Shown here in pieces: positions 10,726 to 19,220 of a stretch of DNA of 19,220 bases; position 1 is the first letter of the stretch, and each line of letters opens with the position of its first letter. The stretch comes from a virus (taxonomy: Duplodnaviria; Heunggongvirae; Uroviricota; Caudoviricetes), in IMG/VR virus record IMGVR_UViG_2778261559_000018; one strand, 5' to 3'. The translations under genes and the position numbers were made by a program. The notes beneath the pieces were generated by a model that was given only the letters and a program-made list of their open reading frames with translations, did not search any database and was not told the DNA's origin.

Positions 10726-11253
10726 CTAGAGACTCTCTCCTTCCTCATCAGGAATTAATTCAGCAGCACAAGCCTCGTAGGATTTTTCCTGAAGAGTGTA
10801 TCGCAGGTCATCAATGGCCTGCTGTACAACGCCGACGGCCTGAGGAGTCAGGGCGCAATCGCGTTCAAGAACATCCGGAATTGTCTCCAGAACCTGGACG
10901 ACAGCCTTTCTCATGGACGAATAGACGATGACTACTTCATCAACGGGGATGAGTTTTCGCTGCTCCTTTTCCAGCTTGATCCTTTCATTTTCAGATTGGT
11001 ACCAGTCCTTTCTCTCTTTCGGCTCCATACGGGATGGATCATGAACAGAGTCTGCTGCCTCATGCTTCACACTAAACAGGGCTGGCCCGACATGCTGCAG
11101 GGCGTAAACGGGGTTCCCCCTGACAGTCGCAGCCACAGGAGTGTTAGCCGCGAGGAGCCGTTTTTTTACTGTGTCCCGGTGAAGCCCAAAGGCCTCAGCG
11201 ATTTTAAAAACACTCCAGTAATAAGCATCACCGATCCCGCTCACATTTGACAT
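10726..11253 (-). CDS. Terminase small subunit (Nu1-like)
   Basis: 175 aa from ATG 11253 with GGAG upstream; helix-turn-helix-like N-terminus; about 180 bp downstream of the predicted cosN and directly upstream of the large subunit. Confidence 0.8.
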   Translation of the reverse strand: MSNVSGIGDAYYWSVFKIAEAFGLHRDTVKKRLLAANTPVAATVRGNPVYALQHVGPALFSVKHEAADSVHDPSRMEPKERKDWYQSENERIKLEKEQRKLIPVDEVVIVYSSMRKAVVQVLETIPDVLERDCALTPQAVGVVQQAIDDLRYTLQEKSYEACAAELIPDEEGESL

Positions 11254-11432
11254 AAGCAACTCCATCTGGCAGGTGAAAATCATGTTTATTTATATATTTC
11301 AATTAATTGCAAACTGGTCTAATGACAGGGAGAAAGAAATATTGTACAGGTGAAAAGAGAAATAACTTTTAATTATCAATAAATTACCAAACATGCTGCC
11401 GCCGCCATGGAAATGCAAAAACTAGCCTTTTT

Positions 11433-11452
11433 CCGCGACGCTCCCGCCCCGT
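11433..11452 (-). other. cosN-like cohesive-end site (predicted 12-nt end GGGCGGGAGCGT on the minus strand at about 11438..11449)
   Basis: Minus-strand ACGGGGCGGGAGCGTCGCGG versus lambda ACGGGGCGGCGACCTCGCGG as remembered; upstream GGGTCCTCCCGGTG resembles the lambda cosQ region. Confidence 0.6.
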
Positions 11453-11478
11453 GGCAGGGGCCCCCACCGGGAGGACCC

Positions 11479-11501
11479 GACAGCCTGACAGCCTGACAGC
11501 C
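11479..11501. repeat. Three tandem copies of GACAGCC(T) on the distal side of cosN
   Basis: gacagcct gacagcct gacagcc read directly; a gcctgacag copy recurs near 11752. Confidence 0.5.
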
Positions 11502-11637
11502 GTGATGAGCATCTGATACAGCGCTTTACATAATGGCATAGGAATAATTCAGAAGGACATCACAGCATGCCCACACAAATTAGTGTGAGTGTCCTGTTTC
11601 TTCCTACGCACAGGACTGACGAGCATGAGGGGAAAAT

Positions 11638-11814
11638 ATGCGAACCATAAATGCCTCATCTTCAGCAATGCAACCGGCATCCGAACAGGACGATATTGTA
11701 AATTCACCTAATTACGAGGACATTGCAGTAGTTGAATTGCAGCTCTGTATTAGCCTGACAGTGACAGAATGCGATATTGACTCTGTCACAGGTGAAATAG
11801 TTTGAATGATTAGC
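11638..11814 (+). CDS. Hypothetical 58-aa ORF (uncertain; overlaps a conserved non-coding segment)
   Basis: ATG preceded by GAGGGG at 6 nt; below the ORF-track size threshold; no recognisable motifs. Confidence 0.2.
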
Positions 11815-11825
11815 AGTTATGGTGC

Positions 11826-12032
11826 TCAGTCAACCACCAGGGAATAATCCTTCGAATTCTTATCGTGCTTCACCAACGCTGCCTCAATTGCCCTGAATGC
11901 TTCCAGAGACACCTGATGTTCTATACATGCAATTACAACATCCGGGTAACTCATAGAAATGGTGCTATTAAGCATATTTTTTACACGAATCAGATCCAAC
12001 GAGACTTCATCAGCAGATTGTTCTTTATTCAT
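11826..12032 (-). CDS. Conserved 68-aa hypothetical protein, homolog of a small ORF in the lambda right arm between the lysis genes and cos
   Basis: ATG with GGAG 8 nt upstream; translation [39 protein letters not shown]... closely matches a lambda right-arm ORF as I remember it. Confidence 0.7.
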
Positions 12033-12332
12033 TTTGTCGCTCCATGCGTTTGCTCGTCATCTAGCGGTTAAAATATTACTTCAAATCTTACTGCATAAAA
12101 GAGGAAAAGTATGAAAGTTTGAGTACATCGACCTTACATACATCTGTCGGTTGCATATCCCTCCTGGATGCCAGCAAGGCTCAATTTTGTTACGCAATCA
12201 ACACTATTCATTAAAAACAGGCTTAATATTTGACATAAATCATCAACAAAACACAAAGAGGTCAGACCAGATTGAAACAATAAACACGATAATGCTAACT
12301 ACGCGCCATCGTATCACATGGAAGGTTTACCA

Positions 12333-12743
12333 ATGGCTCAGGCTGCCATTTTTAAAGAAATATTCGATCAAGTGCGTAAAGATTTAAACTGTGAATTATT
12401 TTATTCTGAGCTAAAACGTCACAATGTCTCACTTTATATTTACTATTTAGCCACAGATAATATTCACATTGTGTTAGAAAACGACAACATAGTGTTAGTA
12501 AAAGGACTCAAAAAGGTTGTAAATGTTAAATTCTCCAGAAACAAACATCTTATAGAGACCTCCTATAATAAGTTGAAATCAAAAGAAATCACATTTCAAC
12601 AATACAGGGAAAATCTTGCTAAAGCAGGAGTTTTCCGATGGGTTACAAATATCCAGGAACACCAAAGATATTACTATGCCTTTGATAACTCATTACTATT
12701 TACTGAAAGCATCCAGAAAACTACACAGATCTTACCACGCTAA
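12333..12743 (+). CDS. ydfO: DUF1398-family protein (YdfO/YbcV-like), opposite strand to the late operon
   Basis: 136 aa from ATG 12333 with GGAAGG upstream; same cos-proximal position as ydfO in Qin and ybcV in DLP12; assignment from synteny and length, not alignment. Confidence 0.6.
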
Positions 12744-12894
12744 ACCATAACGTCCGGCTTCTCTCACTCCTGAGCCGGACTGCATTGGTTTAATAAAAAC
12801 CATCAACAATTGTGATTTAGATATTCGGAACCATTCAAATATAACAAAACCCCGAAAAAACGAGGTTTATGGATAAATTTTATTATTGAATACA

Positions 12895-13068
12895 TCAGAT
12901 TAAATTAATCTTGACATCATAGCTTTCAAGACCCGTCATTTTTTCCCGTGCGGTAAACTGAATACTGGTAACTTCTTTCCCGGTCTTTTTCTTAAGTTCA
13001 ATAATTTTTTTTGTTATATATTCAGAAATATCTGCTTCTGCTTTTGTTTTTAAGTTTTCAATATTCAT
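12895..13068 (-). CDS. gnsB: GnsB-like protein (Gns family, 57 aa)
   Basis: Hand-translated MNIENLKTKAEADISEYITKKIIELKKKTGKEVTSIQFTAREKMTGLESYDVKINLI resembles GnsA/GnsB; GAGG 7 nt upstream; missed by the ORF track as <60 aa. Confidence 0.7.
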   Translation of the reverse strand: MNIENLKTKAEADISEYITKKIIELKKKTGKEVTSIQFTAREKMTGLESYDVKINLI

Positions 13069-13239
13069 CATTTCCTCTTTTAGTCTGTTATGACTTTCCA
13101 GTTACACAGTAAGTCGATTATATGGTGCAAACGTGTAAAAGATAAGATGAAACATCGCAATAATCAACATACGATAGTCTAAATTTTACACAAACAGACA
13201 AAGAGAATTTTCCTGAATTATCAATACAATAGCATCAAA

Positions 13240-13470
13240 TCAACTCAAGAGCCTTATTGCTGCTTCCAGAATTTCTTCTGAAGTAACATGTCGATCCGCG
13301 GCTACATAAATGACTTTATGATCTCCGGTCAGAGATGGAAACCCTGCGGCCATTACAGTAAGGTGTGTTTTTTCGCCATTTGGATATTCACGCATGATGG
13401 TGTTAACTCCAGTCATCGCTGGCACTACCACTGCTGGTTCAGAGTTAAAAAAAACTATGATTTTTTTCAT
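13240..13470 (-). CDS. YmcE/YnfN-like small protein (76 aa) upstream of gnsB
   Basis: ORF from ATG 13470 (MKKIIVFFNSEPAVVVPAMTG...); same position and orientation relative to gnsB as ymcE to gnsA in e14; weak ribosome-binding site. Confidence 0.5.
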   Translation of the reverse strand: MKKIIVFFNSEPAVVVPAMTGVNTIMREYPNGEKTHLTVMAAGFPSLTGDHKVIYVAADRHVTSEEILEAAIRLLS

Positions 13471-13514
13471 GATGTTACCGTAGTATGTGAGTATCCATCG
13501 AATAGATACCAAGC

Positions 13515-13537
13515 AAAAAAGCTCCCGAAGGAGCCTT
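13515..13537 (-). terminator. Rho-independent terminator downstream of cspI
   Basis: gctcc-cgaa-ggagc hairpin flanked by A6 on plus, giving a T6 tract on the minus strand. Confidence 0.5.
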
Positions 13538-13741
13538 CATTTTCACTTTTTTAAATCCAACGACAGACGGCTGGCATTTAAGTATTGTGAAATATTATCA
13601 AATGTAATCATCATTGATTTACAAAAGATACATTTTGCCCCGAAAGGATTCATGTCAGAAACATCAAAAGATGATGTTCTATACTGGGAACCATGACAAC
13701 ACGGGCATCTAAAGTGAATATGGTTTGTAATATTGTCTACC

Positions 13742-13954
13742 TCAAAGCGCCACTACATGAACAGCGGCAGGACCTTTAGGTCCGTTCTCAATACCAAATT
13801 CAACTTCCTGATTCTCAGTTAATGTTTTGAAATCGTTGCTCTGAATTGCTGAGAAATGGACAAACACATCTTTGCTGCCATCTTTCGGCGTGATGAAACC
13901 AAAACCTTTTTCAGGGTTAAACCATTTCACTAAACCAGTCATTTTGTTAGACAT
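13742..13954 (-). CDS. cspI: Cold-shock protein CspI
   Basis: 70 aa [70 protein letters not shown] with RNP motifs; matches E. coli CspI as remembered; long AT-rich 5' region. Confidence 0.95.
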
Positions 13955-14316
13955 AATTATTACCTTTTGAAGAAATTAGCCCTTGGGCAGAATGGTCCGA
14001 AAAAAAATATCAGAGAGAAAAACCAACAAGGAAATCTCAAGAGGTACAAATAATAAAATTATAACAATGACTGCTTCAGATAAATTTGTAACAAACCAGA
14101 ACACCATTAACGCATGATTAACCACCCATAGCAAGGATTACTTTTGTAAAGAAAAACACAGCAATGAAAGAATAGCTTTATTTATTAATAAAACGTGTCA
14201 TTCTGATTAAGACCTTTTATCTTACCCTTAAGATTTCAGGAATTTTGGCTCATGGAAGAGTCCTTTTTATTTAAATTTTACATTCCGCGATGTAAATGTT
14301 CCGATTTAATATTACC

Positions 14317-15340
<1,024 letters not shown>

Positions 15341-15344
<4 letters not shown>

Positions 15345-15652
15345 ATATATTTATGATGAGGACGCTCGTGCTTATTGGCAGGATTTTCAATCTTAAAGGA
15401 GTACTGATGCTGCAGATAAGACTCAACTTTTTCTGACAATTTTTCTGCTACTTCCAGGAAGACTTGCCGGACGCTCCTTCTGGCTGCTGCCTCATAAAAC
15501 TCCAGCGCAGCTCCTTCAACACGGTCCATGGCGACATCCAGGTCAAAAATTTCACCGTCAAAGCGTTCCTTGTCCTGTAAGGCTACAGTTACCGTAACTT
15601 TATTCTCAAAATTACGGACTCCTTTCACAACCAGTTCATAGTCTTGAGTCAT
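15341..15652 (-). CDS. ydfR: YdfR-like soluble protein of unknown function (DUF1327-type) inserted between holin and endolysin
   Basis: 103 aa, no transmembrane segment, acidic; GAGGAGAG upstream; same position as ydfR in the Qin lysis cassette. Confidence 0.7.
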
Positions 15653-15656
15653 TGGA

Positions 15657-15872
15657 TTACTCTCCTCTCGCAGCCTTACGCCTGTCTTCTTTAATCTTGA
15701 AATAAAGATTTGTCAGATACGTCAGCAGGCCAAAAACCAGGCTACCCAGCACACCGATTGCAGCCCACTGTGACGGAGTTACTTTATCGAGTAACTGTAA
15801 TGCCCAGAAACCAGCATTACCCGCCGATGTGCCATAGGCAACACCTGTTGTTAACTTATCCATTGATTTCAT
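15657..15872 (-). CDS. essQ: Class II pinholin (phage 21 S-like) with dual-start motif MKSM (antiholin Met1, holin Met4)
   Basis: 71 aa [28 protein letters not shown]...[23 protein letters not shown]...[10 protein letters not shown]; two transmembrane segments, charged C-terminus; near-identical architecture to S21 68/71. Confidence 0.85.
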
Positions 15873-16344: not shown

Positions 16345-16625
16345 GAGATTGTGGTGCTTTTTGTGGGAGTCATCCACTTACGCACTTTGTTTTGCGATGC
16401 CAGCAGTTAGCTTCTGCTGTGAAACTATTCATGCAGCAAACCTGCACTTCACCACAATGGTTAGCATACTTTTCCTGATTAAGATTTTGCCAAATATGCT
16501 AGCCATTGTTTCATGTATTGGACCTCCTTACTTTTTATTAAAGAGATCCAATATTCACTACTCTGTCCGTATCTCTACTCAGGCATCAGCCTTCTTCGTT
16601 ATCGTATACAGACGAGCGATGAATT

Positions 16626-16841
16626 TTAATCAGTAATGATGACATTTGCTGCTGCAGGACCTTTAGCACCTCTCTCTATAGAGAAGGTAACCTTTTGACC
16701 TTCAAATAAGGTTCGATAATTATCATTCTGAATCGCAGAAAAATGCACAAACACATCTTTACTACCATCAACAGGAGAAATAAAGCCGAAACCTTTATCA
16801 GCGTTAAACCATTTTACTAAACCAGTCATTTTATTTGACAT
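16626..16841 (-). CDS. cspB: Cold-shock protein CspB
   Basis: 71 aa [71 protein letters not shown]; matches E. coli CspB as remembered. Confidence 0.95.
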
Positions 16842-17139
16842 TCTACATTCCTTAACTTGAGCCTTTCGGCATAAATGGTTTGCATAACAGAAACGACTTC
16901 GTACTTAATTGGAGAGACTCAAAGAAGGAATAAGTGAATAACACCTGAAATGAGAACTGCTTTAGTAAACTACTTCGTATATCGTCTGTTCTTCAAACCG
17001 ACGCAGTCATTAACTCATAGTTGAACATATGAAGCAATGTTTATTTTAGACATCCAGCCACCTTCAATCCTATCAAAAAAGTAGTTTTCTCCAGGAACGT
17101 GTGTATGGTGCACCAGGTTATCAGTATTAAGGAGTTTTT

Positions 17140-17345
17140 CTGTCCCCTAAAATGACAGGAATTGTCAAAAACTTTGACTACAAAAGCAGCAAAGGTCTTA
17201 TATTCCCATCCGATGGCGTATCGATGCCCAGCTTCACGTTTCAGCTCTCAATCTTCGAGATGCAGAAGAAATTACCACAGGATTACGCGTGGAATTTTGC
17301 TGGATAAATGGTTCGCGTGGACCTTCAACTGCCAATGTTTATCCC
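17140..17345 (+). pseudogene. cspF: cspF-like cold-shock gene, inactivated: single-base deletion frameshift after the SDG codons, CTG at the ancestral start position, no in-frame stop after the domain
   Basis: Frame 1 encodes (L)[25 protein letters not shown] and frame 0 continues [42 protein letters not shown]; together one cold-shock domain split at about 17217; AAGGAG sits 5 nt upstream of the CTG. Confidence 0.55.
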
Positions 17346-17384
17346 GGGATGAGATTCAATATCTCTATTGCCCCATTTAAAGCA

Positions 17385-17516: not shown

Positions 17517-19220
<1,704 letters not shown>

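Follow-up and report, generated by a model that had tools for sequence, protein, structure and literature searches.

In Escherichia coli K-12 the cryptic prophage Qin (b1549-b1553) carries the genes rzpQ-cspI-ynfQ-ynfR-ynfN-gnsB-ydfO in a row, and a paralogous block, cspH-cspG-ymcF-ymcE-gnsA, sits at 1.051 Mb of the same chromosome, where a csp gene is likewise followed by a gene for a YmcF-like CxxC protein, a terminator hairpin, a conserved block (TTGATTATTGA) with leader, and a gns gene. Phage lambda, for its part, carries bor between Rz and cos. Here we describe a 19,220-nucleotide stretch of viral DNA (Caudoviricetes; IMG/VR virus record IMGVR_UViG_2778261559_000018), referred to in its entirety as the window, in which the interval between Rz and cos holds cspI, ynfQ, ynfR, ynfN, gnsB, a DUF1398 gene and a YbcW-like gene. 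They belong to the right-end moron (cargo) region of a lambdoid, Qin-type prophage from E. coli O26, a region that has been annotated before. An initial annotation, made from the sequence and its open reading frames (ORFs), had treated these genes as a single cold-shock-associated cargo island and likened two of them to a toxin-antitoxin pair. We think it probable that this is a standard moron region composed of three independent units, and that it is neither one island nor a toxin-antitoxin pair.

A cold-shock cargo region between Rz and cos

The identities of the cargo genes, their anatomy and their conservation can be read off directly. Positions 11300-14320 are 100% identical across 3021 bp to E. 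coli O26:H11 strain 11368 and to many other strains, and a megablast search of complete E. coli genomes returned a partial or full match to this segment in 3410 out of 5426. RefSeq annotation, mapped onto the window, supplies a name for every gene of the stretch. All phage genes of this part lie on the minus strand except the DUF1398 gene, which lies on the plus strand, and the gene order rzpQ-cspI-ynfQ-ynfR-ynfN-gnsB-(DUF1398) matches that of K-12 Qin exactly. The ORFs listed by the initial annotation (cspI, a 76-aa ORF, a 57-aa ORF, the DUF1398 gene and a 68-aa ORF) are all located where it had placed them, but its inventory of the interval between Rz and cos was incomplete, with ynfQ (13543-13731) and ynfR (13475-13540) having been missed.

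The cargo insert is flanked by Rz (14317) and cos (11450) and has a GC content of 36-37%, compared with 54% for the head genes and 47% for the lysis genes, making it a low-GC cluster. Its proximity to cos also held up: the linear ends of phage Tritos (OV696610; last and first bases, 98-99% alignment) abut in the window between positions 11450 and 11449, where the sequence reads ...CCACG followed, across the junction, by GGGCGGGAGCGT. These Tritos genome ends place the cos junction, and hence the right end of the phage genome, at 11438..11450 on the minus strand, with GGGCGGGAGCGT as a lambda-like cosN, similar to cosN in lambda itself (GGGCGGCGACCT). The prophage that carries this cargo looks complete, unlike the cryptic Qin.

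YnfN and GnsB across gns loci

Two of the cargo genes, ynfN (13240-13470, minus strand) and gnsB (12895-13068, minus strand), lend themselves to interpretation as a toxin-antitoxin-like pair, in which the toxin GnsB would perturb phospholipid synthesis and YnfN would neutralise it, to the benefit of prophage stabilisation or abortive infection. Both genes are small, lie next to each other and point the same way, and the putative antitoxin is the upstream one. Moreover, PF08178 goes by the name 'GnsAB_toxin', NCBI calls GnsB an addiction-module toxin, reviews and prediction tools count ymcE-gnsA among the type II systems, and YnfN and GnsB occur together in seven out of seven phage records. The initial annotation was right that a toxin-antitoxin role has been proposed for YmcE/GnsA, and the label appears in reviews and in Pfam and NCBI names. 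The proposal reportedly goes back to Wei 2015 and to Yamaguchi & Inouye. The label of ymcE-gnsA traces to a review listing and to a paper on the structure of GnsA.

There is little ambiguity about what GnsB is. Its 57-aa product matches PF08178 across the whole profile (1-54/54) with 120.2 bits against a cut-off of 27 (E 3.3e-35), is 100% identical to GnsB of K-12, and aligns over residues 1-56 with the solved structures of GnsA (PDB 4xo2_A/4xo1_A, E 5e-20); judging by these matches, membership of the GnsA/GnsB family is certain. The intact, 76-aa form of ynfN (13240..13470, minus strand) had been called YmcE/YnfN-like. The second half of that name stands (phrog_3425, E 7e-54), but the first does not: YnfN is unrelated to YmcE, with BLASTP yielding no alignment between the two at E<=100 and YnfN failing to match PF15939 at E<=10, a family that YmcE itself matches with 188.9 bits (E 1.6e-56).

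To place the pair in context, we compared gns loci of Escherichia, Shigella and Citrobacter, 26 in all, which a scan with a Gns alignment had returned from a single genome per species and which we then searched with tblastn. At all 26 loci, a csp gene followed by ynfQ/ymcF precedes gns, in the same order. What lies between ynfQ/ymcF and gns is far less constant: in the GnsB clade we find YnfN, at a distance of 171-335 nt from gns (with the longest gaps, up to 335 nt, in Citrobacter), and in the GnsA clade the ORF called 'YmcE'. One locus (L019) has nothing recognisable in this position and another (L016) only a fragment, while L020 and K-12 carry a frameshift in ynfN and L006 a truncated copy; in every one of these cases gns is intact. 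The K-12 example is instructive with regard to annotation. Its ynfN (Qin, L003) has lost 1 bp from a run of eight Ts (window 13447-13454) and is annotated as a protein of 51 aa, whereas the window and most O26 genomes have the intact 76-aa gene; the short ynfN of K-12 is a frameshift remnant, so that the reference form is the damaged one. As far as these loci tell, YnfN, YdfO and YbcW come and go, while csp, ynfQ/ymcF, the terminator and gns are invariant. Note that two contigs binned as metagenome-assembled genomes of Veillonella parvula and Mucilaginibacter (L007, L023) carry sequence identical to the E. coli Qin and cspG loci and probably represent contamination in binning or assembly.

These comparisons argue against a toxin-antitoxin pair on several counts. 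An antitoxin would hardly be expected to be lost or broken beside an intact toxin gene, and the converse arrangement also exists: phage PHB10 (L004, MK524177, a 57 kb E. coli phage, 1728-3740) keeps a YnfN homologue, 59% identical and located beside divergent csp genes, and has no gns. The two genes of the window do not form a tight bicistronic operon either. The 76-aa ORF had been placed directly upstream of the GnsB ORF but is in fact set apart from it by a 171-nt spacer (13069..13239, minus strand) containing a non-coding block that is conserved across both gns clades, whereas ymcE and gnsA overlap by 11 nt; the supposed analogy between the two arrangements does not survive this comparison. 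In addition, the predicted model of YnfN does not match any known antitoxin or DNA-binding fold (ribbon-helix-helix, helix-turn-helix, AbrB or Phd/YefM), and gnsA and gnsB are, in published work, routinely overexpressed alone, with growth rescued as a result. As to the co-occurrence in seven out of seven phages, we attribute it to shared ancestry and discount it because the modules are 93-100% identical. Taken together, we regard a toxin-antitoxin function of YnfN and GnsB as very unlikely.

As an aside, the YnfN homologue of PHB10 is followed by an unrelated 112-aa ORF, and its neighbours include an integrase, an SOS-response-associated peptidase and umuDC.

YmcE as gene or regulatory DNA

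If YnfN is not a relative of YmcE, is YmcE itself a suitable precedent? The initial annotation had assigned ymcE/gnsA to prophage e14, but in K-12 the pair belongs to the cspG block at 1.051 Mb. There, the 195 nt that separate ymcF from gnsA are annotated as ymcE, an ORF (L002 3848-4078) that overlaps both of its neighbours. The terminator hairpin of ymcF, the conserved block and the gnsA leader all fall within it, and residues 10-20 of YmcE, just like YnfR of the Qin-type locus, are a translation of the hairpin.

Divergence patterns (loci L021, L025, L027 and L029) point in the same direction. Compared with E. albertii, the part of ymcE that does not overlap other genes has a ratio of nonsynonymous to synonymous substitution rates (dN/dS) of 0.81 with a dS of 0.083, against dN/dS values of 0.02-0.12 and dS values of 0.29-0.63 for its neighbours. 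Frameshifts break the ORF in Escherichia sp. E1V33 and E. whittamii, and a stop codon interrupts it in E. ruysiae; all three keep an intact gnsA. 'YmcE' thus behaves like conserved non-coding DNA and looks regulatory rather than like a gene, which undermines the analogy with ymcE-gnsA on which a toxin-antitoxin interpretation of the window had drawn.

One might go further and suppose that csp, ynfQ/ymcF, the terminator, ynfN where present, and gns make up a single cold-gated circuit, in which Csp-dependent read-through of the hairpin would control what lies downstream. The 'YmcE antitoxin' would then be a terminator plus the promoter and leader of gnsA, not a protein, and the toxin-antitoxin label that Pfam and NCBI attach to Gns would be mis-assigned. 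We put this forward tentatively, as a possibility that we do not favour.

cspI, ynfQ and the terminator that follows

The first of the three proposed units begins with cspI (13742..13954, minus strand), which encodes a 70-aa cold-shock protein (PF00313, 108.4 bits, E 1.6e-31) that is 100% identical to CspI of K-12 and evolves under strong constraint (dN/dS 0.02-0.04). A cspA-type thermoregulator leader, covering 5' untranslated region plus coding sequence, precedes it at 13715..14100 (minus strand) and matches Rfam model RF01766 at full length (112.8 bits, gathering score 78, E 1.4e-28). A leader of the same type stands in front of cspB (16626-16841, minus strand), at 16610-17002 on the minus strand (RF01766, 161.6 bits). 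The presence of cspA-type leaders before both cspI and cspB would imply dedicated promoters for these csp genes. According to RefSeq, cspB and cspF (17142-17354, plus strand) lie on the far side of the lysis cassette from cspI, upstream of it, in keeping with what the initial annotation had described.

Could the presence of a cold-shock protein in this location signal anti-phage or superinfection-exclusion cargo rather than cargo for cold adaptation? Morons are classically found at this position, CspI bears a weak resemblance to defence effectors that contain a cold-shock domain (CSD_V in PADLOC, E 3e-15; the retron Se72 effector in NCBIfam, 50 bits against a cut-off of 82), and the DUF1398 protein has a marginal match to REase_II (E 2e-4). 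However, CspI is identical to a cold-shock paralogue of K-12 and its best NCBIfam matches are CspG and CspA, each slightly under the curated cut-off; the PADLOC matches reflect the shared fold of the cold-shock domain or else are marginal or due to chance, and PADLOC found no partner genes of a defence system. We therefore consider a defence role extremely unlikely, and the earlier impression that no defence-system domains are recognisable holds in so far as PADLOC returned nothing beyond the cold-shock-domain match and the marginal REase_II match.

Next in line is ynfQ (13543..13731, minus strand), a gene with an ATT start whose 62-aa product, a paralogue of YmcF, matches PF23641 along its entire length (109.9 bits, E 6.9e-32, profile 1-62/62), contains two CxxC pairs (CPCC and CIFC) and is labelled 'cold shock small protein YmcF' in RefSeq. 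Its dN/dS of 0.07-0.17 indicates purifying selection, to which all four core genes are subject (dN/dS 0.02-0.22). YnfQ also shows a weak match to the ECs_2282 CxxC family, and we observe that a small CxxC zinc-ribbon gene accompanies csp at both cold-shock loci of the window, with ynfU (PF23499; 16092-16262, plus strand) near cspB and ynfQ after cspI.

Directly 3' of the ynfQ stop, at 13515..13538 on the minus strand, is an intrinsic terminator (AAGGCUCC-UUCG-GGAGCUU plus U-tract; fold -12.4 kcal/mol, z -2.31). A GC-rich hairpin with a tract of six or seven Ts follows the stop of ynfQ/ymcF at 24 out of 25 loci read; L016 has a weaker stem. In L019 the stem differs in a compensatory manner (GGCCCC/GGGGCC).

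Given this arrangement, one might suspect that the partner of Gns is not YnfN but YnfQ/YmcF, the zinc-ribbon protein with CxxC pairs, perhaps alongside a Csp, and that csp-ynfQ-terminator-gns is one cold-triggered circuit into which YnfN has been inserted as an optional extra. The order of csp and ynfQ/ymcF directly 5' of gns, constant throughout the 26 loci, is what one would predict under such a scenario, as are the near-universal terminator in between and the purifying selection on ynfQ. Yet the same linkage may reflect inheritance of one ancestral block within a narrow set of taxa: in 5.8 billion sequences the Gns family comprises 188 protein clusters and the YnfN family 60, nearly all of them from Escherichia and Citrobacter. 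Furthermore, with a terminator in between and an upstream block of its own, gns appears to be transcribed as a unit by itself. On balance, we judge YnfQ/YmcF to be an improbable partner of Gns, and retain the view that cspI-ynfQ and gnsB are distinct units.

Beyond the terminator, or rather across it, lies ynfR (13475..13540, minus strand), a RefSeq-annotated ORF of 21 aa that is read through the hairpin. SPA-tagged YnfR (PMC6001520) is strongly cold-induced in K-12, and AZT co-induces cspI (6.5-fold), ynfQ (5.9-fold) and ynfN (5.8-fold). Since the tagged product is cold-induced and the three genes are induced together, read-through into ynfR and ynfN does occur. Along with the leaders of cspI and cspB, these data also support the association with cold shock that had been noted from sequence. 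We also considered translational coupling, with ynfR as a conserved upstream ORF leading into ynfN, and rejected the idea: in L009, L012, L013 and L020 this ORF is either broken or missing.

A probable gnsB transcription unit

The 171-nt spacer between ynfN and gnsB is a candidate for the gnsB promoter and leader. It contains the conserved non-coding block TTGATTATTG at 13158-13167, a pattern that occurs once in the window, and a conserved gnsB leader with ribosome-binding site, ACAGACTAAAAGAGG. In an alignment of 16 gns upstream regions drawn from both the GnsA and the GnsB clade, the corresponding block TTGATTATTGA, located around 100 nt 5' of gns, and the leader ACAGAC(C/T)A(G/A)AAGAGG are common to the two clades. 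Because block and leader are conserved in both, gns would seem to have a regulatory region of its own, and we note that gnsB evolves slowly (dN/dS 0.04-0.07 in comparison with Citrobacter). At its other end, 27 nt past the gnsB stop, a terminator scan identified an intrinsic-terminator-like hairpin with U-tract (12847..12868, minus strand; fold -9.7 kcal/mol, z -2.87), and none of 200 shuffled sequences folded as stably.

Regarding function, the literature reports that overexpression of either gnsA or gnsB alone leads to more unsaturated fatty acids and rescues cold-sensitive growth, the two genes acting as multicopy suppressors. Sugai 2001, as cited elsewhere, reportedly found for the identical K-12 protein that unsaturated fatty acids increase, and that fabA6 and secG-null are suppressed, when it is overexpressed.

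The DUF1398 and YbcW-like genes

The remaining two cargo genes are divergently oriented. The DUF1398 gene (12333..12743, plus strand; WP_000035577.1), antisense to late transcription, encodes a YdfO/YbcV-like protein of 136 aa that matches PF07166 with 147.9 bits (E 1.7e-43) and the nuclear magnetic resonance structure of YdfO (PDB 2hh8_A) with E 8.2e-67. Its location on the opposite strand and its own ribosome-binding site had been pointed out previously, and indeed a GGAAGG motif lies 8 nt 5' of the ATG. Across a divergent spacer of 300 bp, the YbcW-like gene (11826..12032, minus strand) encodes 68 aa, matches phrog_657 (E 6.8e-47) and is annotated as YbcW in phage Tritos. The model of this protein is a three-helix bundle (pLDDT 75.7) with generic matches only. 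A protein from 'Dovyalis caffra', a plant, is 90% identical to it (P0212), probably through contamination in binning or assembly.

Inside the spacer, at 12256..12272 on the minus strand, we find a PdhR-box-like site, ATCTGGTCTGACCTCTT, as an exact match where none is expected by chance. The PdhR site between ybcV and ybcW of prophage DLP12 has the same sequence, and both DLP12 mRNAs are ~10-fold lower in a pdhR mutant (PMC7660256). Given this identity, the DUF1398 and YbcW-like genes are predicted to be a separate transcription unit under a separate, metabolic regulator. They also fall outside the conserved module, since YdfO-like genes are present in only 5 of the 26 gns loci and YbcW-like genes in only 3.

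Model for the cargo region

How might these pieces work together? We suggest the following. In the first unit, cspI-ynfQ would be driven via the thermosensing cspA-type 5' leader and would end at the conserved intrinsic terminator, beyond which ynfR and ynfN would be reached by read-through, presumably favoured in the cold. CspA-family proteins have established antiterminator activity, and read-through may for that reason be promoted by Csp-family antitermination. The second unit would consist of gnsB, which is preceded by a conserved non-coding block of its own and has a terminator to itself, yielding a product that raises unsaturated fatty acids when overproduced. The third would be the divergent DUF1398/YbcW-like pair around its shared spacer with the PdhR box. 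In the lysogen, the cargo genes may act as lysogenic-conversion functions that aid the host when temperatures are low, by chaperoning RNA and acting on membrane fluidity; in the lytic cycle, those on the minus strand would become part of the Q-antiterminated late transcript. In this model we infer where promoters lie, how read-through works and what is gained in fitness. Lysogenic conversion for cold adaptation by three moron units is the most likely function of the region. The single cargo island of the initial annotation is, by this account, better described as three independent units, although much of what that annotation had recognised stands (notably the identification of the 57-aa ORF as GnsB-like), so that we would call its interpretation partly supported overall.

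A number of points weigh against our model. Pfam and NCBI both label Gns proteins as addiction-module toxins, and YnfN accompanies GnsB in each of the seven sequenced phages that have GnsB. The models of YnfN, of the DUF1398 protein and of the YbcW-like protein match no informative fold. A scan for sigma-70 consensus sequences found no good match and called no promoter in the spacer between ynfN and gnsB: the scan returned 6 sites, against 10.9 in shuffled sequence, none of which explains gnsB, and the candidate -10 hexamers of the TTGATTATTGA block are poor. Because the scan found no gnsB site, the promoter role that we assign to the TTGATTATTGA block is inferred from conservation alone. Finally, the lipid effect of GnsB is an overexpression phenotype.

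Neighbouring features

The lysis cassette adjoining the cargo (14317..15872, minus strand) comprises the holin gene essD, ydfR, the lysozyme gene rrrQ and Rz/Rz1, as named by RefSeq and matched by PF10721, PF00959 and PF07041. On the other side of cos, the ORF of the small terminase subunit starts at 11283 and encodes 185 aa (10726-11283), exceeding in length the one called by RefSeq (10726-11253). This subunit is a DUF1441 protein, and K-12 Qin has NohA at the equivalent place; because the two differ, a mosaic joint lies at or near cos. Elsewhere in the window, a full-length Rfam match to the Hfq-binding small RNA isrC (RF01387, 145 bits) at 17726-17848 on the plus strand overlaps, in antisense, the 3' end of ydfT (17776-18528, minus strand), the gene for the Q antiterminator.

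Comparison with known systems

As all genes of the stretch already bear RefSeq names, our analysis carries little weight as discovery. What it contributes is a correction to the logic of annotation: the 76-aa gene is an intact YnfN with no relation to YmcE, and the shorter K-12 gene is its remnant. The comparative data also suggest that the 'Gns toxin / YmcE antitoxin' label in Pfam and NCBI rests on an ORF that resembles non-coding regulatory DNA. The invariant neighbours of gns are instead a csp gene and the gene for a small zinc-ribbon protein, which is relevant to how prophages contribute to cold adaptation.

A close counterpart of the window is K-12 Qin, which shares with it the orientation of the genes, the terminator and the spacer as well as the gene order, has CspI and GnsB proteins that are 100% identical, and likewise carries cspB and cspF across the lysis genes. 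Unlike Qin, the window has an intact 76-aa ynfN in place of the 51-aa annotation produced by the 1-bp deletion, a YbcW-like gene where Qin has ynfO, and a small terminase subunit that is a DUF1441 protein rather than NohA; its DUF1398 protein shares only 78% identity with ydfO from a K-12-like E. coli strain (L006). In the cspG locus of K-12, ynfN is lacking and ymcE is annotated between ymcF and gnsA, YmcE and YnfN sharing no similarity.

With DLP12, the window shares the antisense DUF1398 gene and the 68-aa YbcW gene, arranged divergently around an identical PdhR box and found at the same position of the phage map, as in ybcV-ybcW. DLP12 is not known to carry the cspI-gnsB module at this position; the window combines that module with a pair of the ybcV-ybcW type.

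Such a combination also exists outside bacterial chromosomes. Phages Tritos, mEp460_ev081, 2H10, HannyBb, PhiR42_1 and PhiR63_1 encode YnfN and GnsB proteins 93-100% identical to those of the window, and Tritos, a functional phage, carries cspI-ynfQ-ynfN-gnsB-ybcV-ybcW in identical order at the right end of its genome. These differ from the window in being free phage genomes with less complete annotation, to the point that ynfN of Tritos is annotated as the short form. The claim that cold-shock cargo lies between Rz and cos is therefore right and already known, the arrangement being that of K-12 Qin and of sequenced phages.

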